A DNA stretch of 64,000 bases from positions 40,462 through 104,461 of the forward strand of contig MGCQ01000001.1 in the NCBI GenBank assembly GCA_001790445.1. Direction: 5' to 3'. Numbering within the stretch: the first letter of the stretch is position 1; every line of letters begins with the position of its first letter. Under the pieces are notes generated by a model. It had not been told where the DNA came from, ran no database searches, and saw nothing but the letters and a program-made list of their open reading frames with translations. Of this stretch, positions 5,007 through 57,068 are shown piece after piece. This stretch comes from Candidatus Saccharibacteria bacterium RIFCSPHIGHO2_12_FULL_41_12 (GTDB lineage: Bacteria > Patescibacteriota > Saccharimonadia > Saccharimonadales > 2-12-FULL-41-12). The position numbers and the translations under genes were made by a program.

Positions 5007-5375
5007 GTGATCCAACAAGAATCAAAACTTGGTGTTTGTGACAACAGCGGTGCAAAAGAGATACTTTGTATCCGTGTTCTTGGTGGCACCCGCAGACGTT
5101 ACGCTGGTGTTGGAGACATTATTGTGGCAACTGTTAAACAGGCAGCTCCAAATGGCACCGTCAAGAGAAAATCAGTCGTCAGAGCAGTTATTGTTCGGAC
5201 AAAGAACTCAATCAAGCGAAAAGACGGATCAGTTATTAAATTTGACGATAATGCTGCTGTGATTATTGGTGACGATAAACTGCCGCGAGGAACTCGTATT
5301 TTTGGCCCTGTACCTAGAGAATTAAGAGAAAAAGGTTTTGCAAAAATTGTTAGCCTTGCCCCGGAGGTACTATAA
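5007..5375 (+). CDS. rplN: 50S ribosomal protein L14
   Basis: GTG start gives (M)[16 protein letters not shown], the canonical L14 N-terminus. GAGGAGG SD at 4991-4997. Confidence 0.94.
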
Positions 5376-5708
5376 ATGAGTGATAAAATATACAAAATCA
5401 GATTAAAAAAAGGTGACACAGTCGTTGTCCTGGCTGGAAAAGACAAGGGGAAAACCGGAATTGTCGAGTCTACTCATCCCCGTGAGAACAAAGTGACAGT
5501 AAAGGGTATCAATGTTTACAAAAAGGCAGTCAAACCTGACAAAACACATCCAAAAGGCGGGATCATAGACATAACTAAACCTATTTGGGTCAGTAAAGTC
5601 GCCTTGCAGGAGCCCACGTCTAAAAAACCGTCAAAAATAGGATATAAGTTGACTAAAGACGGAACAAAAGTACGTATTTATAAGCGTACAGGGAAAGGGG
5701 TCAAATAA
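5376..5708 (+). CDS. rplX: 50S ribosomal protein L24
   Basis: KOW motif KKGDTVVVLAGKDKGKTG. Confidence 0.93.
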   Translation: MSDKIYKIRLKKGDTVVVLAGKDKGKTGIVESTHPRENKVTVKGINVYKKAVKPDKTHPKGGIIDITKPIWVSKVALQEPTSKKPSKIGYKLTKDGTKVRIYKRTGKGVK

Positions 5709-6283
5709 TGTCCGATAAATCCACCGCAAAATATATCCCAAGACTCAAAAAGGAGTTTAATGACACCTATAAATCTGAACTAAAGAAAGAACTTGGCCTT
5801 AGCAATATTAATGCTGTTCCTTCACTGGAAAAAATTGTTATAAATATTGGACTCGGAAAATCAAAAGATGACAAAAAAATGTTTGAGGTAGCCACCAATA
5901 CAATTGAAAAGATTACTGGACAGAAACCAATCATGACGTATTCAAAGGTCAATGTGGCGTCTTTTAAGCTTCGAGAAGGTAACAAAATTGGCATGAAAGT
6001 CACTTTGCGTGGTGATCGTATGTTTGAGTTTCTAGACCGTTTTGTCAATATTGTTATGCCTCGTCAAAGAGATTTTCACGGTGTATCAAACAAGTCTTTT
6101 GATTCACAAGGCAACTTTTCAATAGGAGTTGTTGAGCAGTCAATATTTCCAGAACTAAGTTTTGAAGAAACAACCTCGCCACACGGACTTCAAGTGGTTA
6201 TAGTAACAAAATCAAACGGTAAAGAAGAAGCACGGGCTCTTCTTGTGAAGTTCGGTGTACCGTTTATGAAAGAAGGTAAATAA
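5708..6283 (+). CDS. rplE: 50S ribosomal protein L5
   Basis: Length, spc-operon position and conserved central region ([16 protein letters not shown]). Confidence 0.94.
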
Positions 6284-9653: not shown

Positions 9654-11144
9654 ATGAATTGGAAGATAATTTGGAAGTCATTCGCAGATCGAGATATGCA
9701 AAAACGCATATTTGCTGTGCTTGGGATAATTGTTGTCTACCGCGTCATGGCTCATATACCGATCCCGATTGGTGATTCAGCCACTGTCAGACAAGTCATT
9801 GATTCTATATTTGCCTCTACCAATTCTTCTCAGTTTTTAAATTTTGTCAATGTCCTGACAGGTGGGGCCCTGGCTAATTTTTCAATTATGTTGGTCGGAC
9901 TTGGTCCATACATTAATGCCAGTATTATTATGCAACTTCTCACCAAGGCTCTGCCAAAACTGGAAGAACTGAATAAAGAAGGTGAATTTGGACGTAAAAA
10001 GATTAATCAGTACACACGTATGCTCACTCTGCCACTTGCGGTTGTTCAGTCTATTGGGATGATTTACATTGTTAAGCAACAAGCGGCCAGTGTGGCGGGT
10101 CTTGGTGACATTACGGCAAATTCCTCTTTGTTGCAATGGATTTTGATGGTCTGTGCGCTGACAGGTGGTGCAATGATCATGATGTGGCTTGGCGAAATGA
10201 TCACAGAACAAAACATCGGTAACGGAATATCTCTACTAATTACCGTAAGTATCGTTAGTTCTCTTCCTAGAAGCATAGCTTCGTTAGTTAGCTCTGTGTT
10301 TGGTCAATCCTCCTCATGGCAAGTTTTTGGTGTCAATCTACCCATATCAAAAGAGTCCGCTATAACGGCAACAATAATTTCTGCCAGTATAGTCATTTTA
10401 TTAGTATGTGTAGTCAAGCTTAATGAAGCCAGGAGGAATTTAACGGTATCTTATGCAAAAAGGGTCAAAGGAAGCCGCGAATACGGTGGCGTGACCACAG
10501 TTTTACCAGTTAAAATGATAACTGCAGGAGTAGTCCCTATTATATTCGCAGTGGCGTTTTTAAGCTTGCCGACTTTTGTTGGTCAAATACTAAGCTCAAA
10601 CTCAAGCCAAGATCTTCAACAAACCGGCGCTACATTAACAAAAATATTTCAAACACCCACCGCACAAAGCTTTCAGGCGGGCGAAATAACTGCATATATA
10701 TATCCTGTCGCGTATTTTCTTTTAGTATTTTTCTTTACATTTTTCTATACCAGCATAGCCTTTAATGCAAAAGAAATAGCCGAAAATATGCAAAAACAAG
10801 GAGGATTTATCTCTGGAGTTAGAAGCGGACCTAGAACTGAAAAATACTTGAGTTCTGTGGTGATGCGCCTAACTCTTTTTGGCGCTGTATCTATTGGGCT
10901 ACTTGCAGTTATGCCAATAATTGGTGAAATATATTTAGGCAATAACATCGCGGTAAGCGGTACGAGTATTCTTATTTTGGTTGCTGTATCTCTTGAAACA
11001 CTACGTCACATTGAGTCAAGAGCTCTCATGATAACGTATGATCAATATGATGGATCAGATTACTTTCAGCAAGTAGAGGCCAAAAAGTCTAAATTCGCTA
11101 GGGTTAAATCGTTACTAACAAAAGCCAAAAAAACAAACAAATAA
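9654..11144 (+). CDS. secY: Preprotein translocase subunit SecY, with extended C-terminus
   Basis: Multi-TM protein with a SecY-typical N-terminus (RIFAVLGIIVVYRVMAHIPIPI); position after rplO. Confidence 0.95.
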   Translation: MNWKIIWKSFADRDMQKRIFAVLGIIVVYRVMAHIPIPIGDSATVRQVIDSIFASTNSSQFLNFVNVLTGGALANFSIMLVGLGPYINASIIMQLLTKALPKLEELNKEGEFGRKKINQYTRMLTLPLAVVQSIGMIYIVKQQAASVAGLGDITANSSLLQWILMVCALTGGAMIMMWLGEMITEQNIGNGISLLITVSIVSSLPRSIASLVSSVFGQSSSWQVFGVNLPISKESAITATIISASIVILLVCVVKLNEARRNLTVSYAKRVKGSREYGGVTTVLPVKMITAGVVPIIFAVAFLSLPTFVGQILSSNSSQDLQQTGATLTKIFQTPTAQSFQAGEITAYIYPVAYFLLVFFFTFFYTSIAFNAKEIAENMQKQGGFISGVRSGPRTEKYLSSVVMRLTLFGAVSIGLLAVMPIIGEIYLGNNIAVSGTSILILVAVSLETLRHIESRALMITYDQYDGSDYFQQVEAKKSKFARVKSLLTKAKKTNK

Positions 11145-11169
11145 TCAACATAATTCAACTAAAAAAGCT

Positions 11170-11199
11170 TTGACAAATGTGGTCACACTCTGATATAGT
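11170..11199 (+). promoter_or_regulatory. Putative promoter for infA-rpmJ
   Basis: TTGACA (11170-11175), 18 nt, TATAGT (11194-11199). Confidence 0.5.
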
Positions 11200-11218
11200 T
11201 GATAGATTAGTTATATTT

Positions 11219-11440
11219 ATGGTCAAGAATAAAGAAGTTATTGAACTTACCGGCAGAATAGTTGAAACACTACCCGGGACTCAGTTCAAATTAGAACTTG
11301 AAAATGGTCATCAAATTATAGCTCACGTCGCAGGAAAAATGAGAAAACACTATATTCGACTTGTTCCTGGTGACACCGTTAAGGTCGAGTTGACCCCTTA
11401 CGATCTTTCTAAGGGCAGAATCACCTACCGGGTTTCATAA
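11219..11440 (+). CDS. infA: Translation initiation factor IF-1
   Basis: [46 protein letters not shown]. Start taken at MVKNKE. Confidence 0.95.
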
Positions 11441-11489
11441 ATTAAGCAGTGTGCCACGCTCACAATTACATAGAAAGTGCGAGGTCCGT

Positions 11490-11606
11490 ATGAAAGTACG
11501 TGCAAGTGCCAAAAAAATTACAGCTGATGACAAGATCGTTCGACGAAAAGGACGTGTCTATGTAATTAACAAACTAAAACCTAAGCACAAACAGAGGCAA
11601 GGCTAA
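11490..11606 (+). CDS. rpmJ: 50S ribosomal protein L36 (Cys-less form), 38 aa; too short for the ORF track
   Basis: My translation: [38 protein letters not shown]. Position between infA and rpsM. Confidence 0.92.
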
Positions 11607-11608
11607 AA

Positions 11609-11725
11609 ATGTGTATAACGAATAACGGGTGTCGTATATCGGAGAATCTTAAACACAAAGAAGTTTTTGCCGTAATACGTAATACGAGCTACGTAATACA
11701 GAAGCAGGAGGCTTCTCGTGGCTAG
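11609..11725 (+). repeat. Structured intergenic insert, copy 4 (117 nt; mini-[41 protein letters not shown])
   Basis: ATG lies 2 nt after the rpmJ TAA; TAG 11723-11725 overlaps the rpsM GTG 11718 by 8 nt. SD hairpin GAAGC-AGGAG-GCTTC covaries with the other copies. Confidence 0.75.
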
Positions 11726-12104
11726 AATCGCTGGCGTAACAATTCCTTCTGAAAAACGAGTAGTTATTGCTCTAACATATGTTTACGGGATAGGTAGAAA
11801 ACATTCTTCAGAAATTCTAACAAAGGCAAAAATTGACGAATCAGTTCGAGTAAAAAACTTAACAGACGCCGAAATTGGACGTATTTCTGATGTGATTGGC
11901 AAAGATTACATAGTAGAAGGTGATTTGCAAAGAATCGTTACAGGGAACATTAAGCGGCTCAAAGACATCAATGCTTATAGAGGTCTTAGACATAAGAACA
12001 ATCTACCGTCTCGTGGTCAAAGGACAAAGACAAATGCACGAACTCGCCGAGGACGAAAACTCACTGTGGGCGGTACCGCTAAAAAGGTAGCATCTAAAAC
12101 TTAA
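11718..12104 (+). CDS. rpsM: 30S ribosomal protein S13
   Basis: (M)[10 protein letters not shown]-terminus, GTG start. Confidence 0.95.
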
Positions 12105-19480: not shown

Positions 19481-19555
19481 GCCATCTTAGCTCAGGGGTA
19501 GAGCACATCCATGGTAAGGATGGGGTCTCGGGTTCAAATCCCGAAGATGGCTCCA
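19481..19555 (+). tRNA. tRNA-Thr (GGU), CCA encoded
   Basis: Manual cloverleaf: acceptor GCCATCT/AGATGGC, anticodon loop AT-GGT-AA, T-loop TTCAAAT. Confidence 0.9.
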
Positions 19556-19580
19556 TATATATATATAACAGATATATTTT

Positions 19581-19665
19581 GCAGGGATAGTGAAGTGGTT
19601 AAACACGGTAGACTGTAAATCTACTCCCATCGGGTTCGGGGGTTCGAATCCCTCTCCCTGCACCA
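19581..19665 (+). tRNA. tRNA-Tyr (GUA), long variable arm, CCA encoded
   Basis: Acceptor GCAGGGA/TCCCTGC, anticodon loop CT-GTA-AA, T-arm GGGGG-TTCGAAT-CCCTC. Confidence 0.9.
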
Positions 19666-19778
19666 AAATGTATGCACGGTTTCATAAAGGAACAATCAGC
19701 AAATTGTACGAGTGGGGGAAATACTGGAAAACAAAATCAGACAAATCAAAACAACAGTAGCTATGGTATATTAGACAG

Positions 19779-20030
19779 ATGGAAATAGTTGGATTTGTCG
19801 CTACAGTGTTGACTATATTGGCTTTTTTGCCACAAACTTTCAAAGTTGTGAAGACTCGTGAGACTAGAGATATCGCCTTGCTCACATATCTTACTCTTGT
19901 TGTGACAAGCACATTGTGGACGACGTACGGTGTACTGTTGAACAATCCTGCACTCTATGTAACCAATTCTGCAGTAGGTCTTTGTAGCATAACTATTGTC
20001 ATTTTCAAATTACGTGAGATAAAGAAATAA
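19779..20030 (+). CDS. SemiSWEET / PQ-loop sugar transporter (83 aa, 3 TM)
   Basis: Three hydrophobic helices with an LPQ motif in TM1 (FLPQTFKVVKTRETRDIAL). Confidence 0.7.
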   Translation: MEIVGFVATVLTILAFLPQTFKVVKTRETRDIALLTYLTLVVTSTLWTTYGVLLNNPALYVTNSAVGLCSITIVIFKLREIKK

Positions 20031-20090
20031 AGATAATTTGCAGAATTTAGTTAAACGTTGTATTATATCTATCTACATTTAGTGGTGTAA

Positions 20091-21722
20091 TTGAATATGC
20101 TGAATACATTTTCCCCCGATCATGAATTACTGACTAGGAGCTTGAATAGTCCTGGCGATAGTGTCAACCTGCCAATATTCTATTACGGGGAACACGGTTG
20201 GGCTGATACAACACACAGTGACACCGCTATTAATGGACGCACTTCACAAGAATCAGCGGTGCTAGGTCGCGCTGTTGTAGCTCTTACAGATCAACTTCCA
20301 AACAAAACAAATGAAGATGCTGCGCAATCAAGCTACTTAAAGGGACGTATATTAAATGCTGTTGTCCCTGGGATAACTAGTGGGGAGGTGATAACGCCAC
20401 AAGCACTCGGGTACACATACATACCTGGTCAAGGATTTGCTCAAGTCTTGGAACGAGTAGATTGCCACAGCCCTAGATTAGATGACGAAGGGCTGGAAAG
20501 CCAAAGAGTTAGAGAAGCCAGGCAACTTCTCTGGAGCAAAGCAGAAGAGACAGGGATCCAACCATTGACCCATATACACCCCCAGAACCCTCTGGGGAAA
20601 TCAAATTTTCGGGTGCACTCTGATGGGCGATTGATTTGGCTCGATGGGCGGTCAGATATTCCTCTAGCTGGAGCTGTCGGACGGTTGATCCTGCCACACT
20701 TTGGCTTCTACCAAGACGCGGACGAAAAGTTTGGTAAAGATGGCAGAAACTCTGCTTTCAGTGAGATAGATGCTGAAAAGATCGCAGAGCTAATTGATCA
20801 ATTTAATCTAGATCCTCAGGAGAAAGCTCAACTAAGTGAACTGCTGAATATGTACCAATCTTTACAAGATGTTTTGTCTGAACCCTCTGGCAAAAAACAT
20901 AGAGAGCTTGTGGCAGACGATCTCGAAAATCTAGGTGCTTCAAAAAATCGATTGAGAATAATTCGCTCTTCGGTACTTGGGCATAAAGCCGTTAGAGCAT
21001 TTACAATTGGTGGCTCAGCAGCCACTTATACCGGCGATAAAATACAAAGTACAGCTTTGTCGTTAAAGGACAAGCCAAATTCATATTATTTATATCTTAC
21101 AAATCCTACAATCCGTACACACGCTATTCTTAAGTACACTGTATTAAGAGGGCTGAAGGCCGGCTGTGAGCATGGATCAGTTACAGAAAAGGAATATAAA
21201 GAGGCTCTCGACGTAGTGTCTCCACATGATCTCAGTACATACGTGGGTTTGCAAACGTTTTATTTAGCTAATTCACGAGTATTTGATCTCATAACGGGTT
21301 CTCTAATAGCAACCAATCCCGGGTTTAAAGAATTTTTGACAATATTCACTGCTGGTACAGTAGGTAGTTCGGCAGTCAGAGGGGTAGCAACGGCTATAAC
21401 AAGTCTTTTTAGAGATACTGAGCTTAAAAAGGCCACCATGTCCTCTATGATACCTATGCTTGGTGGCTATACAGCCATTGTTCAGCAAATGATGGCTACT
21501 TATGGAGAATACACTAAAGATATTAAGCACAATACATTTAGGCTACTAGCATCAAATATTTCTAAACTAAGGCTTGGTGGTGGTTGGGGTAGTGACGCAG
21601 AGGAAAAATTATGGCAAAAAAACCAAAACTACAAAACCGTTTATCAAGGAGTAAAAAAAGATACCCAAGCTATAATTAGCCATACCATAGCAATGCTCAA
21701 TAAAGTTAAATCAAAATTTTAA
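20091..21722 (+). CDS. Hypothetical protein (543 aa)
   Basis: Long uninterrupted ORF with no confident family assignment. Weak kinase-like strings (HIHPQN, LIWLDG). Confidence 0.6.
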   Translation: MNMLNTFSPDHELLTRSLNSPGDSVNLPIFYYGEHGWADTTHSDTAINGRTSQESAVLGRAVVALTDQLPNKTNEDAAQSSYLKGRILNAVVPGITSGEVITPQALGYTYIPGQGFAQVLERVDCHSPRLDDEGLESQRVREARQLLWSKAEETGIQPLTHIHPQNPLGKSNFRVHSDGRLIWLDGRSDIPLAGAVGRLILPHFGFYQDADEKFGKDGRNSAFSEIDAEKIAELIDQFNLDPQEKAQLSELLNMYQSLQDVLSEPSGKKHRELVADDLENLGASKNRLRIIRSSVLGHKAVRAFTIGGSAATYTGDKIQSTALSLKDKPNSYYLYLTNPTIRTHAILKYTVLRGLKAGCEHGSVTEKEYKEALDVVSPHDLSTYVGLQTFYLANSRVFDLITGSLIATNPGFKEFLTIFTAGTVGSSAVRGVATAITSLFRDTELKKATMSSMIPMLGGYTAIVQQMMATYGEYTKDIKHNTFRLLASNISKLRLGGGWGSDAEEKLWQKNQNYKTVYQGVKKDTQAIISHTIAMLNKVKSKF

Positions 21723-21725
21723 ATT

Positions 21726-21802
21726 TGGAGCCACCTGTCGGATTCGAACCGACGACTTTCAGTTTACAAAACTGACGCTCTAACCAACTGAGCTAAGGTG
21801 GC
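21726..21802 (-). tRNA. tRNA-Thr (UGU), CCA encoded
   Basis: Reverse complement folds as GCCACCT...AGGTGGC-T-CCA, with anticodon loop TT-TGT-AA. Confidence 0.9.
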
Positions 21803-21810
21803 AAATGTAA

Positions 21811-22224
21811 TTAAGGTTTAGACTTTATATACTTAAGCTTTCGCCAAGCTCTACCTTTACACTTGTTTAAATTTCTATAACTTGGAGTGAGCGAATGACA
21901 GTTAGGGCACAATAAACGTAGATTACTTTCGTTATTGTTTTCAGCATCTCCATCTATATGATCTACTTCAAGCGGGGAATTTCCTGTAACTCTATTTGTT
22001 TTGTTCCAGCCACAAAATGAGCATGCTTGTTTGTTTTTCTCGAGCAAGTATCTACGTATGTGTTTAGAAATATTTCTGGCTGAGATTCCTCTACTGCCTG
22101 TCACTTCATTGTTTTTCCATTTGTTAATGTACTCTTGGTGCTGATAATCTAATTGGCATTGATTTGAGCAGTATATGTACGAAAGTTTTGCTTTTCGATT
22201 ACTGCACATTATGCAATATTCCAT
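21811..22224 (-). CDS. HNH endonuclease
   Basis: EVDHIDGDAENNNESNLRLLCPNCHS HNH core plus N-terminal Cys-rich region. Confidence 0.85.
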   Translation of the reverse strand: MEYCIMCSNRKAKLSYIYCSNQCQLDYQHQEYINKWKNNEVTGSRGISARNISKHIRRYLLEKNKQACSFCGWNKTNRVTGNSPLEVDHIDGDAENNNESNLRLLCPNCHSLTPSYRNLNKCKGRAWRKLKYIKSKP

Positions 22225-22349
22225 CTATCAATTATACCAGCAATAAGACATTTTCTATTACAATAAACTATCTAGTTTTCGTATATAATAAATTTTAACA
22301 AATATGTTACTCGAACTCTATTATTACTTGATAAATTGTTAGGAAATCG

Positions 22350-22378
22350 TTTACATTTCGGTTTTGATCTGTTAAAAT
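22350..22378 (+). promoter_or_regulatory. Putative promoter of rpmG (near-leaderless)
   Basis: TTTACA, 17 nt, TAAAAT (22373-22378). ATG 22388 lies 9 nt downstream with no SD. Confidence 0.4.
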
Positions 22379-22387
22379 AGCATGAAT

Positions 22388-22594
22388 ATGGCGAAGAAGA
22401 ACGACAAACGAAAAATAGTAGGACTTGTCTGTGAAGAAACAGGGCATCGTACATACTACACTAAAAAAAATACGATGAATACTCCCGACAAGCTAGAACT
22501 ACGTAAGTATAATCCACTACTCAGGCGTGTAACCAAATATGTTGAGACTAGTAAGAGCCTTGGTCGTAACGAAGTAAAAGCTCGAAAAAAGTAA
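22388..22594 (+). CDS. rpmG: 50S ribosomal protein L33 (Cys-less form) with C-terminal extension
   Basis: MAKKNDKRKIVGLVCEETGHRTYYTKKNTMNTPDKLELRKYNP matches the L33 pattern. Confidence 0.85.
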   Translation: MAKKNDKRKIVGLVCEETGHRTYYTKKNTMNTPDKLELRKYNPLLRRVTKYVETSKSLGRNEVKARKK

Positions 22595-22623
22595 ATCTTT
22601 TGTACTTTTTGAGTTAAGTGCTA

Positions 22624-25131
22624 TTAGTCTGATATCACGTATTGACTATTATCATCAGCATTTGGCAGGGTAGGAGGCGCTGGTTTGAGCAATATTGCAA
22701 ATGCGGTAACTTTGTTCGGTATTGATCTTTCGAGATAAATCTTTCCACCCATTTGTTCCGTCAGCAATCGCGAGATGTATAAGCCCAAACCAGTACTTTG
22801 CGTATTATCTCTTGTAAGGATGCTTTCTGTTGCTTGTTGAAACTTGCGGAATAACAAGTTTTGATACTTGGGGTCAATGCCTTTGCCGGTGTCTTCTACT
22901 ATAATCTTGACCATATTATTCTCCGTGCTGAGTTTAATAGTAATGGTACCTTGCTCAGTAAACTTACGGCTGTTACCTATAAGATTAACAATGACCTGTC
23001 TCAATCTATCTTTGTCCCCAGAAACATTTGGTATAGCCGCAGCTGGTTTTTGCATCAGTAAAGACAATTTATCCCCAGATACAGTCAAATTGAATTCCCG
23101 AAGAATGCTTTCGCACATCGTCGTTACGTTAATTGACTCTATTTTGAATTCTATTTTGCCAAGCTCTAAACGTGAGGTGTCCAAAAAATCATTAACTATT
23201 TTTATTAAGCGAACGCCAGATTCATGAACATCGTTGATCATTTCGCGTAGCTCAGGTGTTTTCAGCTCGTCAATGAAGTAGCTTTGGATCATGGACATAT
23301 TGCCGACAATCGCAGTCAAAGGCGTTCTCAGCTCGTGAGAAGCAATAGAAAAGAATTCATCGCGAGTGCGTTCCAGGATTTTGGTTTCAGTAATATCTTG
23401 TATGATTATTACGCTACCTATGACTCGACTAGTCGTTCCTATGGTGATCGGCGCGATGAATATATGGAGGAATTTATTGCCAAATTCAAGAGACGTTATT
23501 TCTATTGATCGAGAGTCGTCTCTACAGTTTTTCACATCTTTTGTAAAATCAAGTGTCCCGTCTAAAAGCTGAGACAGAGATGTTAAATTATCTATAGATT
23601 GGTCAATGTGTTTATCAAATAATATTTGTTGAGCAGCAGAATTCAGCATAACAATTTTGTCTGCAGGATCTACCATGATAAAGCCTAGCTGCAAATTATT
23701 TATCGATGCTTGCAGCCTGGCCTGTTCCTCCATGATCTGGTGCGTATAATCTTGGTTTTCTCGTATATAGCGGTTAAAAGCCTGGGACAATACCTGAAAT
23801 TCATCGCCGGTATTAACAGTTGGCGGGTCATATTTACCTGTTTTCTCTGCTTGATTCACAGCCTGAATTAACGAGTTAGTAGCTCGCGTTAACACAGAGT
23901 TAAATATACCAATGGCTGAAATTGTCAGCAATACTATAAACAAACCGCAAAGCGACAAAAACACAGCTATTTTATAAAGAGGGCTATAAAAGTCTGTTTC
24001 ATATACGAGCACCACTAATTTTTGGTCATGATAAGGCTCAAAGACGATCAGCTTTATATCTCCCTTTAAGTCACGAATTGCTCCACGGTCTGCATTCTGA
24101 AATCTAGCTTGTGTCCCTGCAGTTACGTTGTCTACTGGTAAACGTTCATTATTTTGTAACAACCACGCTTTGCTGTTATCCCCGCGTTGCAAATTATCTG
24201 TTACCGGTTCACCCTTTGTGTCCGCACGTTCAATACTCTTTTGCATGTCATTTTGGATATTAGCCGTTAGATTATCTCTGGTTATAGACTGGAACGATTG
24301 CATAAATATCATAATCATTAAGGAGAGGCTGGCAAGCGTCAGGAGCAAAACAACACCGAACACCTTATACGCATATTTTCGTCTCATGACGTCTTCTAAT
24401 TTATATTGCTCAATAATCCGTGAGCGTATTGGTCCCATGAAGCTGTCTATCACCAAGTATTGAAACAACGCTACAAAAAATGATAATACCGCGCCGACAC
24501 CAATATTTTTTATGGTTTCTATCATTGGAGCGTCAGCCCAAAAGTGGACCTGCATAGTCCCGACAGTAAATCCAACAATAGTAAATACTGACATTCTGAC
24601 AGCAACGTTGATAGGGAAGTTGAGCATTCTTCTATAAAGCCGCTCGGGATCGTCTGTGTGTCCGGTTGCGAGGTATTTTGTTATCGGTAAAAAGATGATC
24701 TGGCTAATTGTGTACGTAATCCCTGCAATAATGAACACTTCCCAGTAATATCCAAAAGAAACTATTCTTAGCTGATCAGAGTTCACGTTTGTGGTAACAA
24801 ATTGATAAAAAATGCCAATCAACCAGTACCAGAATACTGCACTGGCCCACTCTATCATAAGAAGTTGAGTGTTAGTACTTATGACGTGTCGTTTTCTCCA
24901 AATTGCGAACAGAGAGACAATAACTATCGATACCAGGGGTATGGTCAAGGTGTAAAATGTGTAAAAGGTAAAATCCCAATCCCGCAATATGCTGACACCG
25001 ATATATCCGCAAACTATTAAGGTGGCGATTGTCATTACTGAGAGAGGAACGGCAATTAGGGGGAGTGAACTACGCAGAGTTTTCCTCTGTGTATCTATTG
25101 TCTGCGTTTGAATATTTTTTGTCATAAGCAA
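22624..25131 (-). CDS. Membrane sensor histidine kinase (835 aa)
   Basis: Multi-TM N-terminus, then FFSIASHELRTPL H-box and a GTGLGLYISR-type ATPase G-box. Confidence 0.88.
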   Translation of the reverse strand: MLMTKNIQTQTIDTQRKTLRSSLPLIAVPLSVMTIATLIVCGYIGVSILRDWDFTFYTFYTLTIPLVSIVIVSLFAIWRKRHVISTNTQLLMIEWASAVFWYWLIGIFYQFVTTNVNSDQLRIVSFGYYWEVFIIAGITYTISQIIFLPITKYLATGHTDDPERLYRRMLNFPINVAVRMSVFTIVGFTVGTMQVHFWADAPMIETIKNIGVGAVLSFFVALFQYLVIDSFMGPIRSRIIEQYKLEDVMRRKYAYKVFGVVLLLTLASLSLMIMIFMQSFQSITRDNLTANIQNDMQKSIERADTKGEPVTDNLQRGDNSKAWLLQNNERLPVDNVTAGTQARFQNADRGAIRDLKGDIKLIVFEPYHDQKLVVLVYETDFYSPLYKIAVFLSLCGLFIVLLTISAIGIFNSVLTRATNSLIQAVNQAEKTGKYDPPTVNTGDEFQVLSQAFNRYIRENQDYTHQIMEEQARLQASINNLQLGFIMVDPADKIVMLNSAAQQILFDKHIDQSIDNLTSLSQLLDGTLDFTKDVKNCRDDSRSIEITSLEFGNKFLHIFIAPITIGTTSRVIGSVIIIQDITETKILERTRDEFFSIASHELRTPLTAIVGNMSMIQSYFIDELKTPELREMINDVHESGVRLIKIVNDFLDTSRLELGKIEFKIESINVTTMCESILREFNLTVSGDKLSLLMQKPAAAIPNVSGDKDRLRQVIVNLIGNSRKFTEQGTITIKLSTENNMVKIIVEDTGKGIDPKYQNLLFRKFQQATESILTRDNTQSTGLGLYISRLLTEQMGGKIYLERSIPNKVTAFAILLKPAPPTLPNADDNSQYVISD

Positions 25132-25233
25132 TCTTTGCTCAAGATTTCCTCCTAAAGCATAACTACTTTATATATTACAACGCCAGTGGAATATCCCAAA
25201 ACTTACTTGGTTATAAGTTGCTTAAAATAATTT

Positions 25234-25308
25234 TGGCAGGGGCACGTGGAATCGAACCACGATCTAAGGTTTTGGAGACCTTTATACTAACCGTTGTACT
25301 ATGCCCCT
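25234..25308 (-). tRNA. tRNA-Trp (CCA anticodon), CCA end encoded
   Basis: Reverse complement: AGGGGCA...TGCCCCT-G-CCA, with anticodon loop CT-CCA-AA. Confidence 0.88.
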
Positions 25309-26200: not shown

Positions 26201-26892
26201 TGCTGATGACCAGCGATTTTGTCGAAATAAACAGCCACAAAGTGCGAATACTCAAAAGAAAAGGTCAGCGTCATCTACGGCTACGCATTAATTCTAGTGG
26301 CAATGCAATATTATCTATGCCAAAGCGGTTGCCAAAGTACATGGGTATAAAATATTTACAAACCAAAACAGCATGGTTGGACAAACACACATTCCAGCCA
26401 AAACAAATATCGTTCGGTAGCAAATTGTTTACTGGACAAGAAATAAGCATCGTAGATGGTTCAAATACTAGAAATAGAGTTGTAATTTCAAAAGAAACGC
26501 TTGAGTTTTACTTACAATTTGATAGTAACGACCCAGCTTCGCAACGATATATGTCAAAAATAATCAAGAATCTATACATTGATCATTTAAGCAAAATTGT
26601 CTCACAAAGACTTGACTATTATAGTGATCTGACCAAACTGAAATATAGAGATTTTGCTGTTAAAAATTTGCGCAGCAAATGGGGTAGCTGTGACCGCCAT
26701 AAGCAATTAAAGTTCTCCCTATATCTACTGGGCGTGGACATGGCGTTGATTGACTATGTAGTTCTACATGAGCTTGCACATACTAAGTACATGCACCACC
26801 AACCATTGTTCTGGAAGTTGTGCGAACAGTATATGCCTGACTACAAACATAGACAAAAACAACTTAAAATTTCTAGAATGAATCTAGTATAA
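26200..26892 (+). CDS. YgjP/DUF45-type zinc metallopeptidase-like protein
   Basis: KWGSCDRHKQLKFS...YVVLHELAHTKYMHHQPLFW (HExxH). 1-nt overlap with the upstream kinase gene. Confidence 0.8.
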   Translation: MLMTSDFVEINSHKVRILKRKGQRHLRLRINSSGNAILSMPKRLPKYMGIKYLQTKTAWLDKHTFQPKQISFGSKLFTGQEISIVDGSNTRNRVVISKETLEFYLQFDSNDPASQRYMSKIIKNLYIDHLSKIVSQRLDYYSDLTKLKYRDFAVKNLRSKWGSCDRHKQLKFSLYLLGVDMALIDYVVLHELAHTKYMHHQPLFWKLCEQYMPDYKHRQKQLKISRMNLV

Positions 26893-53322: not shown

Positions 53323-54180
53323 CTACTGGGTATGGGTGGAGTCTTTGCTGACCCAAACATATTCCCACGACTCTGGCTCTGGACCTTGACTAGTCGCCCC
53401 AGCAGGGTAGCTGGGTATCCAGCCAGCTTTTTTGGTGTTTTCATAATTATTTGCACTGAGCCAGGTATAACAAGGTGTATTTTCGAATCGTCGATTTTCG
53501 TAACCTTGACAAGCTAGATCTATAGTATATCCAGTATGGTGCCTGGAATACCCAGGTGGAGCAGTAGTATTCAAGACATTATTGATCTGTGCGTCTGTCG
53601 CACCATAACGATTACCCAAGCGACTTAGAAATATTTCTTTTTGATCCTCGGCACTCCTATATCCAGCGATAACCTTTAGCCCAATATTGTCTTTCACAGC
53701 GTGAGCTTGCAGCTCAACCCAATCCGCATAAGCTTTTTGCTGTAGCTTGTGCTCACTGTCGACAGCTACAAAACTATCAACAATCGGGGCGCTCCTGATC
53801 ACGTAGCCTTTTGCGGCGGCCAATGTTCTGATTCGCTCATCTAATGACTCACTGTAGGTTATTGGTGTTTCTTCGCTGATTTTTGCAGTATTAGGGAAGA
53901 CAAATGATTTGTAGAGCTCTCTGAATTGTTCTGGAGTAAACTGTCTTAAGTTATTTTTTGCTGTAGATTGAGAAACTTGTGTGGCTGTTTTTGTTGGAGT
54001 ATTTTCTTTGTTGTTAACGTTCAAAACAGTGTGCTTAACGCCAACCTCATAAACAAAAGCCAAAATTATCGCTAATGCTAAAACTAATAGGAATTTCTTA
54101 AGCTTACTCCCACCTGTTTTCTTTGCTTGGATAGACTTATGATCTATAACCCTCATGCTAATAATTAGTATATCATCCAA
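53323..54180 (-). CDS. VanY/M15-family D-alanyl-D-alanine carboxypeptidase, membrane-anchored
   Basis: PGYSRHHTGYTIDL and GWIPSYP motifs. N-terminal TM. Confidence 0.82.
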   Translation of the reverse strand: MDDILIISMRVIDHKSIQAKKTGGSKLKKFLLVLALAIILAFVYEVGVKHTVLNVNNKENTPTKTATQVSQSTAKNNLRQFTPEQFRELYKSFVFPNTAKISEETPITYSESLDERIRTLAAAKGYVIRSAPIVDSFVAVDSEHKLQQKAYADWVELQAHAVKDNIGLKVIAGYRSAEDQKEIFLSRLGNRYGATDAQINNVLNTTAPPGYSRHHTGYTIDLACQGYENRRFENTPCYTWLSANNYENTKKAGWIPSYPAGATSQGPEPESWEYVWVSKDSTHTQ

Positions 54181-54248
54181 ATTACCATTGTTACAGAGGC
54201 AAATATTTGCTAGTTAAATGAGCTAATCCACAAAAAATTAATAAATAA

Positions 54249-54410
54249 TTAGTGTGCTGGAGCCGTGTCTCGAATTGTTTTGGCGCGCTTTACCATGTCA
54301 CGTTGATCTTTCATTGAAGCATCGACAGCTTTTTTTATAGCACGTTCGCTAGTAACATACTGTTTTGTCGTAGGTTTTCTAGTTAATTTTCGTAATATTG
54401 CGTAAACCAT
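54249..54410 (-). CDS. Small basic hypothetical protein (53 aa), not in the ORF track
   Basis: My translation: MVYAILRKLTRKPTTKQYVTSERAIKKAVDASMKDQRDMVKRAKTIRDTAPAH. Starts 4 nt after the zeta-like gene stop. Confidence 0.4.
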   Translation of the reverse strand: MVYAILRKLTRKPTTKQYVTSERAIKKAVDASMKDQRDMVKRAKTIRDTAPAH

Positions 54411-54414
54411 ATTT

Positions 54415-55098
54415 TTAGATTATCTTTCGATTTAATTCATCTTTATTGTACGTTCTTTTGCCAAAATCGTCAACTCTTTTCGCTCCTCTATTAAAGCTAT
54501 ATCTATTCAAATTATCTTTAACGACCGAAACAACGTATACTTTATCCCCTAAATCATCAATGATCTTTTGTACGTTGTTCGGCACCTCTTCGCATGCTTT
54601 TAAGAATCCTTTTCTTTCGATACCTCGTTTTGTGTCAATTTCTCTTGCTTTAGTAATATCCCAAGCCACAAGAGGATCTTGATAGATATAGAATAAGCCA
54701 ACAAAGTATCCATGGTTAAGAGCTCTTTGAATATTGTGTGCACCTTTGCTATGAGCAAAGGTGCCGTCTAGAGCAAAATTATATTTCTTTTCTGTGACAA
54801 TATCTAGAGTCTTCTCGATTATTGGATTAGCTGAATCGCGATACATATAATATTTGTCAGCACTATAATTTTCAAAATATTCCACGATAGTATCTAGGTC
54901 AATTTTGACGAATGGATCAGGTGAGCTTGCGAGAAATTGCTCAAGGAACTCTGTTTTTCCTGCTCCTGGAATACCTGCCATAAAAATAGCAATAGGCTTA
55001 TCTACAGGCACCGCACCTGAAGCTGAAATAATCTTTTCAGCTATCTTCTTACGATTCTTCTTTGCCCATTCTTTATTATTGATAACCCTCATGTTCAC
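54415..55098 (-). CDS. Zeta-toxin-family P-loop kinase-like protein
   Basis: Walker A FMAGIPGAGKTEF; ~227 aa with zeta/AAA_33-like layout. Confidence 0.7.
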   Translation of the reverse strand: MNMRVINNKEWAKKNRKKIAEKIISASGAVPVDKPIAIFMAGIPGAGKTEFLEQFLASSPDPFVKIDLDTIVEYFENYSADKYYMYRDSANPIIEKTLDIVTEKKYNFALDGTFAHSKGAHNIQRALNHGYFVGLFYIYQDPLVAWDITKAREIDTKRGIERKGFLKACEEVPNNVQKIIDDLGDKVYVVSVVKDNLNRYSFNRGAKRVDDFGKRTYNKDELNRKII

Positions 55099-55163
55099 TA
55101 TTATACTTCAAATTCATGACCGTTTAATATATAATTAACACCTGTAGTTGGTGGAAGCTTGAA

Positions 55164-55240
55164 GGTCGAATCCCTCCACTTAACAATTCGAACCCCCACG
55201 TTAGGGTATAATAATGTGTGTTGATGGGATGTGGCCAAGT
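55164..55240 (+). repeat. Direct repeat unit a (T-arm remnant, promoter, and 5' start of tRNA-Gln)
   Basis: Appears identical by eye to 55363-55439 (offset 199 bp). Confidence 0.85.
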
Positions 55241-55377
55241 CGCACTGGCACCAGTTTTTGGTACTGGCATTCGGGGTGAGAACTGCCAGTCGGCAGTTTG
55301 CAAGGAAATCTTCCGATGCCAACTGGTTTGGCAATCGCGAAGTTTCGGACCTGCCAAAGGTAGGTCGAATCCCTCCA
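55225..55377 (+). pseudogene. tRNA-Gln-derived pseudogene interrupted by the 87-nt module E1
   Basis: The 5' half matches tRNA-Gln except for the D-loop. The insert follows GCATTCGGGG. The 3' acceptor strand (CACTTAA) cannot pair with TGGGATG. Confidence 0.7.
55277..55363 (+). repeat. 87-nt structured module E1
   Basis: 80/87 identical to E2. Hairpins AACTGCC/GGCAGTT and TGCCAA/TTGGCA. Confidence 0.8.
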
Positions 55378-55439
55378 CTTAACAATTCGAACCCCCACGT
55401 TAGGGTATAATAATGTGTGTTGATGGGATGTGGCCAAGT
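55363..55439 (+). repeat. Direct repeat unit b
   Basis: See unit a. Contains TAGGGTATAAT (-10 at 55406-55411) 12 nt upstream of the intact tRNA-Gln. Confidence 0.85.
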
Positions 55440-55498
55440 GGTAAGGCACCAGTTTTTGGTACTGGCATTCGGGGGTTCGAATCCCTCCATCCCAGCCA
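55424..55498 (+). tRNA. tRNA-Gln (UUG), CCA encoded
   Basis: TGGGATG...CATCCCA-G-CCA, anticodon loop TT-TTG-GT, T-arm GGGGG-TTCGAAT-CCCTC. Confidence 0.9.
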
Positions 55499-55536
55499 TC
55501 CTCTGTTGTGACCCGTTTTGGGTCACTACGGAGGAT
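55498..55536 (+). other. Hairpin immediately 3' of tRNA-Gln
   Basis: ATCCTC/GAGGAT outer stem and GTGACCC-gtttt-GGGTCAC inner stem. Confidence 0.5.
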
Positions 55537-55572
55537 AATTGTGGATCAAGAGGGATCCGAACACCCGAGTGT

Positions 55573-55692
55573 GCATTCGGGGCGAGGACTGCCTGTCGAC
55601 AGTTCGCAAGGAAATCTTCCGATGTCAACTGATTTGGCAATCGCGAAGTTTCGGACCTGCCAAAGGTAGGTCGAATCCCTCCATCCCAGCCA
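55573..55692 (+). other. tRNA-Gln fragment: GCATTCGGGG, module E2 (55583-55669), then T-loop and correct 3' acceptor strand with CCA
   Basis: The flanks match tRNA-Gln exactly, apart from G for T at the first T-loop base, but no matching 5' acceptor, D arm or anticodon arm lies upstream. Confidence 0.7.
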
Positions 55693-55946
55693 AAAGACTT
55701 CTTCTTCGCGACCCTTTACAGACGCAACTTGATGAAAACATTGGCTGATAGGTAACTGAGGTGTAAAGAGGTATAATAGTTATAGAAATCCAGGCGATTC
55801 ATGCCGGTTGATATATAAATTGGCATTTCTCTTCTCGAAAGAGATTCATTACTGTAATTAAGAAAGGCTAGCTTATTAATATTCTATTTATTAGTCCGAA
55901 CTCTCCGCTCGAAAGCGTAGGCGGCATTGAGCGTTATCTAGTTAAT

Positions 55947-57068
55947 GTGATTGAGTACAGCAAAAAACAAACTAAGTTCAAAACGATTGTGCTATTGCCT
56001 ACCGGTAAAGAAAACTATGTTGAAGAAGACGGTAGTGTAGTTACTTATTTCGACAAAAATATTGAATTAACAAAAAATAATTATGGCAAGGTAATGAGTA
56101 GGAAAGCTCAAAAGTTTGCCAAGAAGGTAGAAGAAATCATCCTAAAACATAAAATAGATATAATTTGTGCCGAGAACTTTCCCGTCGGTCTGCCGCCAGC
56201 CTACAGCATATTGCTTAACATGGTAGCCGTTCGATATAAAACCCCTCTAGTTTTAAGGATGCACTCTTTTGCGGCTTCAGAACTTCAAACCGAGCTTATT
56301 AATCAACTTATGTGGAGCAAGATCAGTTGTGTCAGTAAAAGTGTCGCTGGGGATTGTTTTCGAAAGGGCGCGAACATAGATATCCTATCAACCGATTATT
56401 TAGGAGTGAACACGAACGTCTTTAATAACAATAGCCACGTCAACAATACAGCGAAGGAACGATTGCAGCTTGTACCCGAAAACAAAGTAGTCCTAACAGC
56501 CACCAGGATTATTCAAGGGCGGAATAATATTCTTAAGGCAAAAGGGCTTATTAACTTGGTCCAAGCATTTTCAAAACTTTCACTCAGACACCCTGATTTG
56601 CGACTGGTTATTGCGGTTGCTAAAGCACCCGATAGACTAAAAGACGAATTCGATAATGCATATACGATGCTTTTGGGGTATATAAAACTTCATAATATTG
56701 AGTCCAAGACTATAGTCAAAACCTTTATGTTAGATGAGATACCAGAGGTTTATAAAGCATCAGACGTATTCGTATTAGCCTCTGAAAACGAAACGTTCGG
56801 CCAGGTCTTTATTGAGGCGATGAGCTCTGGCTTACCAGTCATTGGTACGAAGGTCGGTGGTATCCCAGAAATTATTAGTGATTCGTATAATGGCTATTTG
56901 ATTCCGCCCAACGATGTCAGTAGCTTAGCCCAAAAAATAGCCAAGCTTCTCAATGACCAACCAACTCGGGATAAGTTTATAAAAGCGGGGGTTAAGACCG
57001 TTAATAATAAATTTACGCTAGAAAAACAGCTAGATAATTTTATTACGATGTTAAGAAAAACTGCTTAA
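55947..57068 (+). CDS. Family-4 (GT-B) glycosyltransferase
   Basis: ETFGQVFIEAMSSGLPVIGTKVGGIPE motif. GTG start. Confidence 0.85.
   Translation: MIEYSKKQTKFKTIVLLPTGKENYVEEDGSVVTYFDKNIELTKNNYGKVMSRKAQKFAKKVEEIILKHKIDIICAENFPVGLPPAYSILLNMVAVRYKTPLVLRMHSFAASELQTELINQLMWSKISCVSKSVAGDCFRKGANIDILSTDYLGVNTNVFNNNSHVNNTAKERLQLVPENKVVLTATRIIQGRNNILKAKGLINLVQAFSKLSLRHPDLRLVIAVAKAPDRLKDEFDNAYTMLLGYIKLHNIESKTIVKTFMLDEIPEVYKASDVFVLASENETFGQVFIEAMSSGLPVIGTKVGGIPEIISDSYNGYLIPPNDVSSLAQKIAKLLNDQPTRDKFIKAGVKTVNNKFTLEKQLDNFITMLRKTA

Follow-up and report, generated by a model that had tools for sequence, protein, structure and literature searches.

A conserved, structured RNA module on truncated tRNA copies at a tRNA-Gln locus of Saccharibacteria

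We analysed a tRNA-Gln locus in a 64,000-nt stretch of DNA (the window) from Candidatus Saccharibacteria bacterium RIFCSPHIGHO2_12_FULL_41_12 (GenBank GCA_001790445.1, contig MGCQ01000001.1, positions 40,462 to 104,461), a Saccharibacteria host belonging to the candidate phyla radiation (CPR)/Patescibacteria. At this locus an intact tRNA-Gln(UUG) gene lies between truncated copies of the same tRNA that carry an 87-nt insert. We found that this insert is one member of a family of modules of about 100 nt. Judged by sequence comparison, the module is a real, conserved structured RNA domain of Saccharibacteria that is undescribed in Rfam.

The tRNA-Gln locus

A preliminary description had proposed three tRNA-Gln-derived segments with one intact gene at 55424-55498, and all the features it listed proved to be present, with coordinates within 1 nt. 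ARAGORN calls a single tRNA-Gln(ttg) at 55424-55498, which scores 65.2 bits against the Rfam tRNA model RF00005 (gathering score 29). It alone qualifies as a canonical cloverleaf, with an acceptor stem of 7 bp, all three arms (D, anticodon and T) and a score above gathering; segments 1 and 3, upstream and downstream of it, gave no Rfam tRNA match even at E<=10. Comparison with the gene also upheld the two defects reported for segment 1: its D-loop is GTCGCACTGGC, as compared to GTGGTAAGGC in the intact gene, and its T-loop half is followed by CACTTAA, which cannot pair with TGGGATG of the 5' acceptor.

The insert has the described length of exactly 87 nt each time (55277-55363 and 55583-55669). 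Two insert pieces of 19-26 nt each occur exactly twice in the 64-kb window and 0 times in shuffled sequence. A repeat finder returned a 111-nt repeat (55267-55377 / 55573-55683, 94% identity), and the direct repeat with an offset of 199 was recovered as 78 nt (55163-55240 / 55362-55439, 100% identity). There is also a 30-nt repeat that spans the anticodon arm through GGGG (55247-55276 / 55445-55474) and a 22-nt repeat of the tRNA 3' end (55477-55498 / 55671-55692, 100% identity). Besides the intact tRNA-Gln, the window has a single downstream copy, an upstream T-loop copy and a second one reduced to a stump. The features are given below; module scores are from covariance model R1, which was built from the module alignment with both window copies in its seed, so that these two scores are not independent.

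55163-55200, + strand: leftmost remnant, T-loop 3' half AGGTCGAATCCCTCC and non-acceptor tail ACTTAACAATTCGAACCCCCACG; opens the first 78-nt repeat
55163-55240, + strand: 78-nt perfect repeat, copy 1, running from the T-loop half and tail through promoter-like TTAGGGTATAAT to nucleotide 16 of the tRNA
55201-55212, + strand: -10-like element TTAGGGTATAAT before the upstream copy
55225-55276, + strand: upstream copy ('class B') with the 5' part of tRNA-Gln: 5' acceptor strand, D-arm whose loop is altered, UUG anticodon arm, variable loop and GGGG as 5' strand of the T-stem
55273-55373, + strand: module copy 1, from its R1 match (106.6 bits, E 9e-23) and fold (closing GGGG/CCC(U), P1 55280-55299, junction GCAAGG, P2 55305-55346, P3 55348-55366, GAATCCC)
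55362-55439, + strand: 78-nt perfect repeat, copy 2, beginning at the 3' end of module copy 1 and reaching into the intact tRNA
55400-55411, + strand: TTAGGGTATAAT before the intact tRNA-Gln
55424-55498, + strand: intact tRNA-Gln(UUG), CCA encoded (ARAGORN; RF00005)
55499-55535, + strand: strong hairpin immediately 3' of CCA, without a T-run
55539-55563, + strand: 5' arm of the downstream copy ('class A'), TTGTGGAT-CAA-GAGGGAT-CCGAACA (made up of a decayed acceptor 5' strand plus the 5' sides of T-stem and T-loop; complementary to the 3' tail of the same unit, dG -21.1, z -3.1)
55564-55581, + strand: hairpin P0 (CCCGAGT-GTGC-ATTCGGG), 3' strand GCATTCGGGG common with the tRNA
55579-55679, + strand: module copy 2 (P1 55586-55605, P2 55611-55652, P3 55654-55672; R1, 95.2 bits, E 4e-20)
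55671-55692, + strand: 22-nt tail TCGAATCCCTCCATCCCAGCCA, 100% identical to the intact tRNA 3' end (T-loop half, T-stem 3' strand, acceptor 3' strand, G, CCA)

Boxes like TTAGGGTATAAT stand ahead of tRNA-Gln 5' ends at two comparison loci, L014 and L012, as CCCCACGTTAG(G/T)G(T/C)TATAAT or TTTTAGGGTAAAAT; a simple promoter-consensus scan missed the TTAGGGTATAAT at 55201-55212. The 78-nt repeat terminates at GCCAAGT, the D-loop point used by D-loop module copies elsewhere, and the DNA left of 55163, on the zeta-toxin side, is unrelated to the repeat. The hairpin at 55499-55535 occupies the position of a bidirectional terminator hairpin at other loci. Run over the whole window, R1 matches at 55273 and 55579 only. 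Four more tRNA genes (Thr, Tyr, Thr, Trp) at window positions 19481-25308 have no module copy. An apparent second match to the tRNA tail at window position 26400 was discarded, as it is an 11-mer with one mismatch and within chance expectation.

Conservation, fold and strand of the module

The module consists of hairpins P1-P3 around a conserved junction (GUGAGAA / CGCAAGG / CGG) and is closed by a borrowed tRNA stem. We searched contigs, one genome per species, for GCATTCGGGG followed after 75-100 nt by GGTCGAATCCC. This flank-anchored search gave 17 loci, 13 of them from Saccharibacteria, and a homologue of the insert was present in 13/13 Saccharibacteria loci. A metagenome search with a pattern drawn from the 3' part of the insert yielded 42 further loci with the module. 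The insert is conserved over at least 48 sequence variants.

When 15 copies were folded with RNAalifold, we obtained the closing helix and P1-P3, with 38 pairs, 21 of them doubly compensated. Across these copies 97.7% of pair cells are paired, and the 21 double-change pairs compare with 10.6 in shuffles (0/500) and 2-6 when slid. The result was similar for 43 distinct copies: the 37 pairs are 97.7% paired, and double changes occur in 23 of them as compared to 14.7 in shuffles (0/500) and 8-9 when slid. P3 covaries in the flank-anchored set (L010, L014). The junction and loop nucleotides of the module are conserved, and the P2 loops are 4-5 nt (CUNNG). R1 scores 95-118 bits on the tRNA strand (+) as compared to 15-30 bits on the reverse strand, and it gives 53 plus-strand matches of at least 62 bits in loci other than the window. 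This strand difference, together with frequent G-U pairs, establishes which strand encodes the module. Both window copies show the traits of the R1 family, namely P1-P3, the junctions and a tRNA closing stem on the tRNA strand.

With Rfam 15 at E<=10, tRNA was the only match in window positions 54000-57000 and at locus L058, with no intron family among the hits. Two module patterns gave 0 matches in viral collections, and we found no published description of the module in the literature searched, which is not proof of absence from the literature. ARAGORN reported no tmRNA in the window or the scanned loci. Three candidate identities were rejected: inspection of the alignment revealed no hammerhead-type CUGAUGA/GAAA core, the short P2 loops are not anticodon-like, and the 15-codon ATG frame that might have been a small open reading frame (ORF) is not conserved.

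These data bear on the view that the locus is a set of pure integration scars, that is, attL/attR-type leftovers of repeated entry and exit at tRNA-Gln in which the insert is the decayed, functionless end of an element. Several observations agree with this view. The tRNA 3' end is duplicated exactly over 22 nt, arrays of tails with small-ORF cassettes and kilobase islands with serine recombinases lie at the same tRNAs, a relative (L072, below) has a simple locus, and tandem partial tRNAs mark serial integration (10.1101/2020.12.28.424599). However, neutral DNA would not hold 37 pairs at 97.7% with 23 doubly compensated over 43 distinct copies, and neither the same architecture in several species nor the use of three different tRNA loops with the closing strand retained would be expected. 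Covariation, strand specificity and an architecture that recurs across species thus argue against neutral scars, and we regard this explanation as improbable. Two readings lose their footing here: that the copies are scars or decay products, which is at odds with strong covariation in at least 48 variants, and that the arrangement is a one-off rearrangement, since the insert is a conserved module and the layout recurs at L058, L043, L033 and L049. Misassembly of the window locus is unlikely because the same architecture is found in independent assemblies.

At six loci (L011, L013, L015, L017, L024, L036) other units of 95-190 nt adjoin the module unit and share its tRNA 3' tail and terminator. 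Several of them open with GGGATTCGAACGGG, followed by a covarying hairpin with the apex UGCC-AGUG-GGCA, as in P1. These units may be a reduced relative of the module.

Recurrence and movement of the module at tRNA genes

The module recurs in dozens of Saccharibacteria. In the carriers seen, its place is always a hairpin loop within a truncated tRNA copy, and next to that copy, on the same strand, there is an intact tRNA gene. Running R1 over all loci, we found the order module copy, tRNA, module copy also at L058, L043, L033 and L049. Most genomes have a downstream copy only.

An upstream copy opens with a duplicated tRNA promoter and the tRNA 5' part as far as one stem-loop; the module fills that loop, and the closing strand follows. 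The module is placed in the T-loop in the window and at L013, L014, L024, L039, L042, L056 and L058; L043 and L069 have it in the anticodon loop, and L033, L049, L058 and L069 in the D-loop. In all upstream cases the module start UGAGA directly follows the 5' half of the loop, the closing strand comes next, and tRNA homology then ends. The promoter is duplicated in the window, at L033 and at L058. P2 and P3 of the D-loop subtype have diverged into a form of their own, which is common to three species. Against the Rfam tRNA model the L058 upstream copy scores 19.3 bits, which is under threshold. At L014, L039 and L042 the upstream anticodon stems differ from those of the resident tRNA by compensatory pairs, indicating that these 5' parts come from another tRNA-Gln lineage.

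Residence in D, anticodon and T loops is shared with archaeal non-canonical introns, and one explanation is that the module is an intervening sequence removed from a precursor, with the broken copies feeding functional tRNA-Gln, possibly as a split tRNA from the 5' and 3' copies. Patescibacteria are unusually rich in tRNA and rRNA insertions (PMC13011429), and the 5' copy and 3' copy in the window are complementary in content. However, the insert of about 87 nt lies in a T-arm and has neither a group I core nor an Rfam intron match, whereas the group I introns found within tRNA genes exceed about 200 nt, have a P3-P9 core and sit in the anticodon loop. Excision would leave GGGGG-TCGAAT-CCCTC, with a T-loop of 6 nt, and in segment 1 the unpairable CACTTAA opposite TGGGATG; the consensus fold has 3-nt and 2-nt single strands beside the closing helix, which is not a bulge-helix-bulge (BHB) motif, and no search aimed at a splicing endonuclease was made. 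A full-length tRNA with the insert was found in 0/13 of the Saccharibacteria loci from the genome scan. The downstream copy stands alone in most genomes, so that a two-piece tRNA is not the rule, and the two modules are identical in sense, not complementary. Since every carrier examined is truncated and an intact gene is constantly present beside it, the evidence is against an intron of a working tRNA, and the intervening sequence contemplated in the preliminary description is very unlikely.

Downstream copies lie 3' of the intact tRNA and its terminator-type hairpin. They consist of a decayed acceptor/T-stem 5' arm, P0 (the upper part of which varies and covaries among loci), the module at the T-loop position and the T-loop 3' half, and they end in the exact 3' end of the local tRNA, CCA included. 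We found them mostly after tRNA-Gln and also after Val, Arg(UCU), Arg(CCG), Lys, Ser and Leu tRNAs; these isotypes, six with Gln, each supply their own local tail. From CCA to CCA the units measure 181-194 nt, and 28 distinct units elsewhere are bounded by a repeated tRNA 3' tail as in the window. We also compared the unit ends with miniature inverted-repeat transposable elements, which have terminal inverted repeats and a short target-site duplication. In the downstream units GGGATCCGAAC of the 5' arm is an inverted copy of GGTCGAATCCC, and there are TCGAA-like halves on either side of P0 plus module. Such ends, which upstream copies lack, may simply follow from tRNA ancestry, since the T-arm is itself palindromic. 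At the Arg loci L025 and L057 a Gln-type 5' arm (CTGAGTG/CTGAGC) is joined to Arg-type tails, and at L023 the direct repeat includes the terminator.

Locus L069 is more elaborate. Two tRNA-Leu genes lie 6 kb apart around a serine-recombinase island (5338-5806 and 11553-11796, minus strand), and upstream of each is a module copy, which occupies the D-arm in one case and the anticodon loop in the other. One downstream unit has a partial module followed directly by a complete one, tandem or nested.

A close relative, L072, keeps the order VanY (72% identical), tRNA-Gln (98.7% identical to that of the window) and OtsAB. Its tRNA-Gln locus is a simple tRNA and terminator, with 0 R1 matches and with zeta toxin and GT4 absent from the syntenic site. 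A plain single tRNA-Gln at this site indicates that module copies have been gained or lost, and it serves as the empty site expected of an integrative element. It had been proposed that relatives with a plain tRNA-Gln would point to decay products. L072 is such a relative, but other relatives keep the module, and this observation is not decisive alone. At L072 4712-4800 a GGGATTCGAAC motif (inverted and T-loop-like) lies about 35 nt after the tRNA-Gln terminator, where downstream units start elsewhere.

The window locus has VanY and a zeta toxin as left neighbours and a GT4 glycosyltransferase and a fused OtsA-OtsB as right neighbours. The GT4 protein shows 100% identity to one from Candidatus Saccharibacteria bacterium RIFCSPHIGHO2_12_FULL_41, which places the genome in CPR/Patescibacteria. 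VanY is separated from the tRNA-Gln array by the gene of the zeta-toxin family (54415-55098, minus strand; Pfam PF06414, E 1e-26), for which no epsilon antitoxin is obvious, and this gene is probably another acquired cassette, as it is missing at the L072 syntenic site. On the other side, positions 55693-55718, 3' of segment 3, hold half of a terminator hairpin (AAAGACTTCTTC...), the full form of which, AAAGACTTCTTCGGAAGTCTTT, follows units in L061 and L062. Five relatives with 76-92% identity in the GT4 protein have no tRNA-Gln beside GT4, and synteny through this gene was rejected as an approach. Their homology to the window begins only at 55718, upstream of GT4, which suggests a further junction there.

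The preliminary description had invoked integration at tRNA genes, and this logic holds. The window has an exact 22-nt direct repeat of the tRNA 3' portion, as in tRNA att duplication, L072 is a simple locus, and the same tails bound both small-ORF cassettes (L055, L061, L062) and islands of kilobase size. Two islands, of 4.3 kb at L009 and 13.6 kb at L057, each start with a large serine recombinase that abuts the tRNA and has Resolvase, Recombinase and Zn_ribbon domains (Pfam). The L009 island runs from tRNA-Gln through the serine recombinase and cargo to P0, module and tail, with no extra tail between. Homologues of this recombinase always overlap a tRNA-Gln or tRNA-Leu gene in antisense. 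The 3' ends of these recombinase genes (L065, L066, L069, L070 and L071, about 10001-11650; L009, 1917-3555) traverse the whole tRNA-Gln/tRNA-Leu gene, and their last ~28 codons are tRNA antisense sequence.

The main rival explanation builds on these islands. It holds that the module is the attP P-arm of serine-recombinase elements, that the units of about 190 bp are deleted, non-autonomous derivatives (miniature integrative elements), and that the structure serves the element, for example as a regulatory RNA or folded recombination site, and not the host. The L009 island ends as this would predict, the Arg loci L025 and L057 look as if the arm travels and the tail is local, and the L023 direct repeat takes in the terminator. 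P3, which adjoins the junction, is also the most sequence-conserved helix in the pattern-independent set (11/13 loci in A2). However, among the recombinase-homologue loci L065-L071 only L069 has the module, of six scanned (L067 was not scanned), and we rejected the module as an obligatory end of such islands. The absence of integrase or cargo between the window copies, reported earlier, stands: the 172 nt between the 22-nt repeats have no credible ORF, tblastn found no homologue of the two serine recombinases there or elsewhere in the window, and tyrosine integrases were not searched window-wide. Serine recombinases need sites of only about 50 bp and are not known to use RNA. A single attP does not account for upstream copies that lie in D- and anticodon loops and have duplicated promoters, and a travelling 3' arm should leave chimeric acceptor stems at non-Gln tRNAs, which are intact. 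We consider this explanation unlikely on present evidence; module and serine recombinases are weakly linked, by shared target sites and not by an obligatory partnership.

A related possibility is that the module is a protein-binding scaffold and that the tRNA-derived stretch (17-52 nt 5', 8-22 nt 3') guides a nuclease or recombinase, resembling the omega and bridge RNAs at transposon ends (IS110 bridge RNA, TnpB/IscB omega RNA). The scaffold always directly adjoins sequence that matches the target tRNA gene exactly, at the point where inserted DNA ends, and its junction and loop nucleotides are conserved. However, the units have no accompanying conserved protein gene: we saw no guide-RNA-type recombinase or nuclease gene among the window neighbours and no conserved neighbour across loci. 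The flanks are identical, not complementary, to the tRNA, and there is no likeness to any Rfam family. A guide-like role for the module therefore seems highly doubtful.

A probable tRNA-scaffolded RNA, possibly mobile, and its known counterparts

Taken together, we think it probable that the module is a structured RNA on tRNA-derived scaffolds, transcribed with the tRNA and copied and moved by recombination in tRNA loops. Copies would be transcribed together with the tRNA, from duplicated tRNA promoters and by read-through of the hairpin, and could be released by the enzymes responsible for maturing the adjacent tRNA. Stems derived from the tRNA, together with the tRNA-like CCA end, may serve the module as a scaffold for expression and stability, and its conserved junction and loops may bind a partner. 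New copies would arise by duplicative recombination with breakpoints in tRNA loops, which could also move the module between tRNA loci with an intact tRNA always retained; large serine recombinases found at these same tRNA sites are candidates for the agent. This reading lies nearest to the small tRNA-targeting insertion element that was the closest of three alternatives in the preliminary description.

Several points weigh against this reading. Transcription, processing and any partner of the module copies are steps that we infer. The downstream copy has no promoter of its own, and in most loci a terminator-like hairpin stands between it and the tRNA. We rejected the idea that the downstream unit is a maintained acceptor/T minihelix, as this pairing is poorly kept in several loci (dG -4 to -26 kcal/mol) and shows no covariation or compensation at Lys- or Arg-type tails. 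The tRNA-like 5' arm is probably a relic as a result, the 'tRNA-like scaffold' of the downstream copy may likewise be a relic and not a functional feature, and recent recombination accounts better than RNA pairing for the exact identity of the tails. The invariance of P3 in the metagenome set was imposed by the search pattern, and the closing GGGG/CCCU helix is invariant, and for that reason unproven, within the T-loop class. Finally, units of about 190 bp are too small for plausible autonomous circles, and the scarcity of the module at recombinase-homologue loci and the lack of a recombinase homologue in the window count here as well.

A bolder version, which we offer tentatively and as no more than a possible extension, is that the module is a small mobile RNA element of CPR bacteria that colonises tRNA D-, anticodon- and T-loops and its own hairpins (L069), and that is fixed together with a partial duplication preserving the intact tRNA. 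Such an element would be a bacterial counterpart of transposing tRNA introns or the guide-like scaffold of an unrecognised recombination system, and not a passive passenger of an integrase.

Saccharibacteria genomes are tiny, with little that is dispensable. If the module is a functional RNA, Saccharibacteria would have in it a non-coding RNA that is widespread, multi-copy, probably highly expressed, driven by tRNA promoters and listed in no database. Such strict confinement to loops within truncated tRNA copies has not been described for bacteria. The arrangement is relevant to tRNA genes as landing pads, to how CPR genomes gain DNA despite few classical mobile elements, and to the natural use of tRNA stems as scaffolds for other RNAs. 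Module copies also confuse tRNA annotation, and R1 can flag them.

By analogy, the closest known concept is the tandem accretion of integrative elements at tRNA genes, in which tandem partial tRNAs are a known signature of serial integration, as in the tycheposons of Prochlorococcus (bioRxiv 10.1101/2020.12.28.424599). As in such genomic islands, an intact tRNA is followed by partial 3'-end copies in arrays with cargo of different sizes, tyrosine or large serine recombinases use the same sites, and arrays are present or absent between close relatives. Unlike tycheposons, the commonest 'cargo' here is about 190 bp, gene-less and made up of the covarying structured module only, partial copies also lie upstream with duplicated promoters, and the module lies precisely at the breakpoints, which are in D-, anticodon- and T-loops.

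Two kinds of tRNA intron offer further parallels. Archaeal and red-algal BHB introns occupy D-, anticodon- and T-arms and have been proposed to transpose between tRNA positions (PMC3241643, PMC9602550). They share with the module a short structured insert at alternative loop positions, with related inserts at different positions and in different tRNAs; unlike them, the module has a bacterial host, truncated carriers, junctions without a bulge-helix-bulge and an intron-less intact gene always adjacent. The group I introns in tRNAs of Patescibacteria are from the same phylum and are likewise RNA elements that interrupt tRNA genes and are missed by standard tRNA finders (PMC13011429). Those introns are longer than 200 nt, interrupt the only functional gene at its anticodon loop, self-splice and are detectable with the group I covariance model; in contrast, the module measures about 87-100 nt, and it has neither a group I core nor an Rfam match.

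RNAs that carry unrelated domains on tRNA stems form the last comparison. The tRNA-like domain of tmRNA, mascRNA/MALAT1 and engineered tRNA scaffolds are all examples of RNAs with a tRNA-like end or scaffold. The module is similar in that an unrelated RNA domain is grafted onto tRNA stems, and enzymes of tRNA processing could be recruited by its tRNA-like 3' end, which comprises the 3' strand of the T-stem, the acceptor strand and CCA. It differs in that the domain lies inside a loop and not between acceptor and T arms, that acceptor pairing has decayed in many module copies, and that ARAGORN calls none of them a tmRNA. The known kinds nearest to the element are tRNA-site cassettes and tRNA-scaffolded RNAs.

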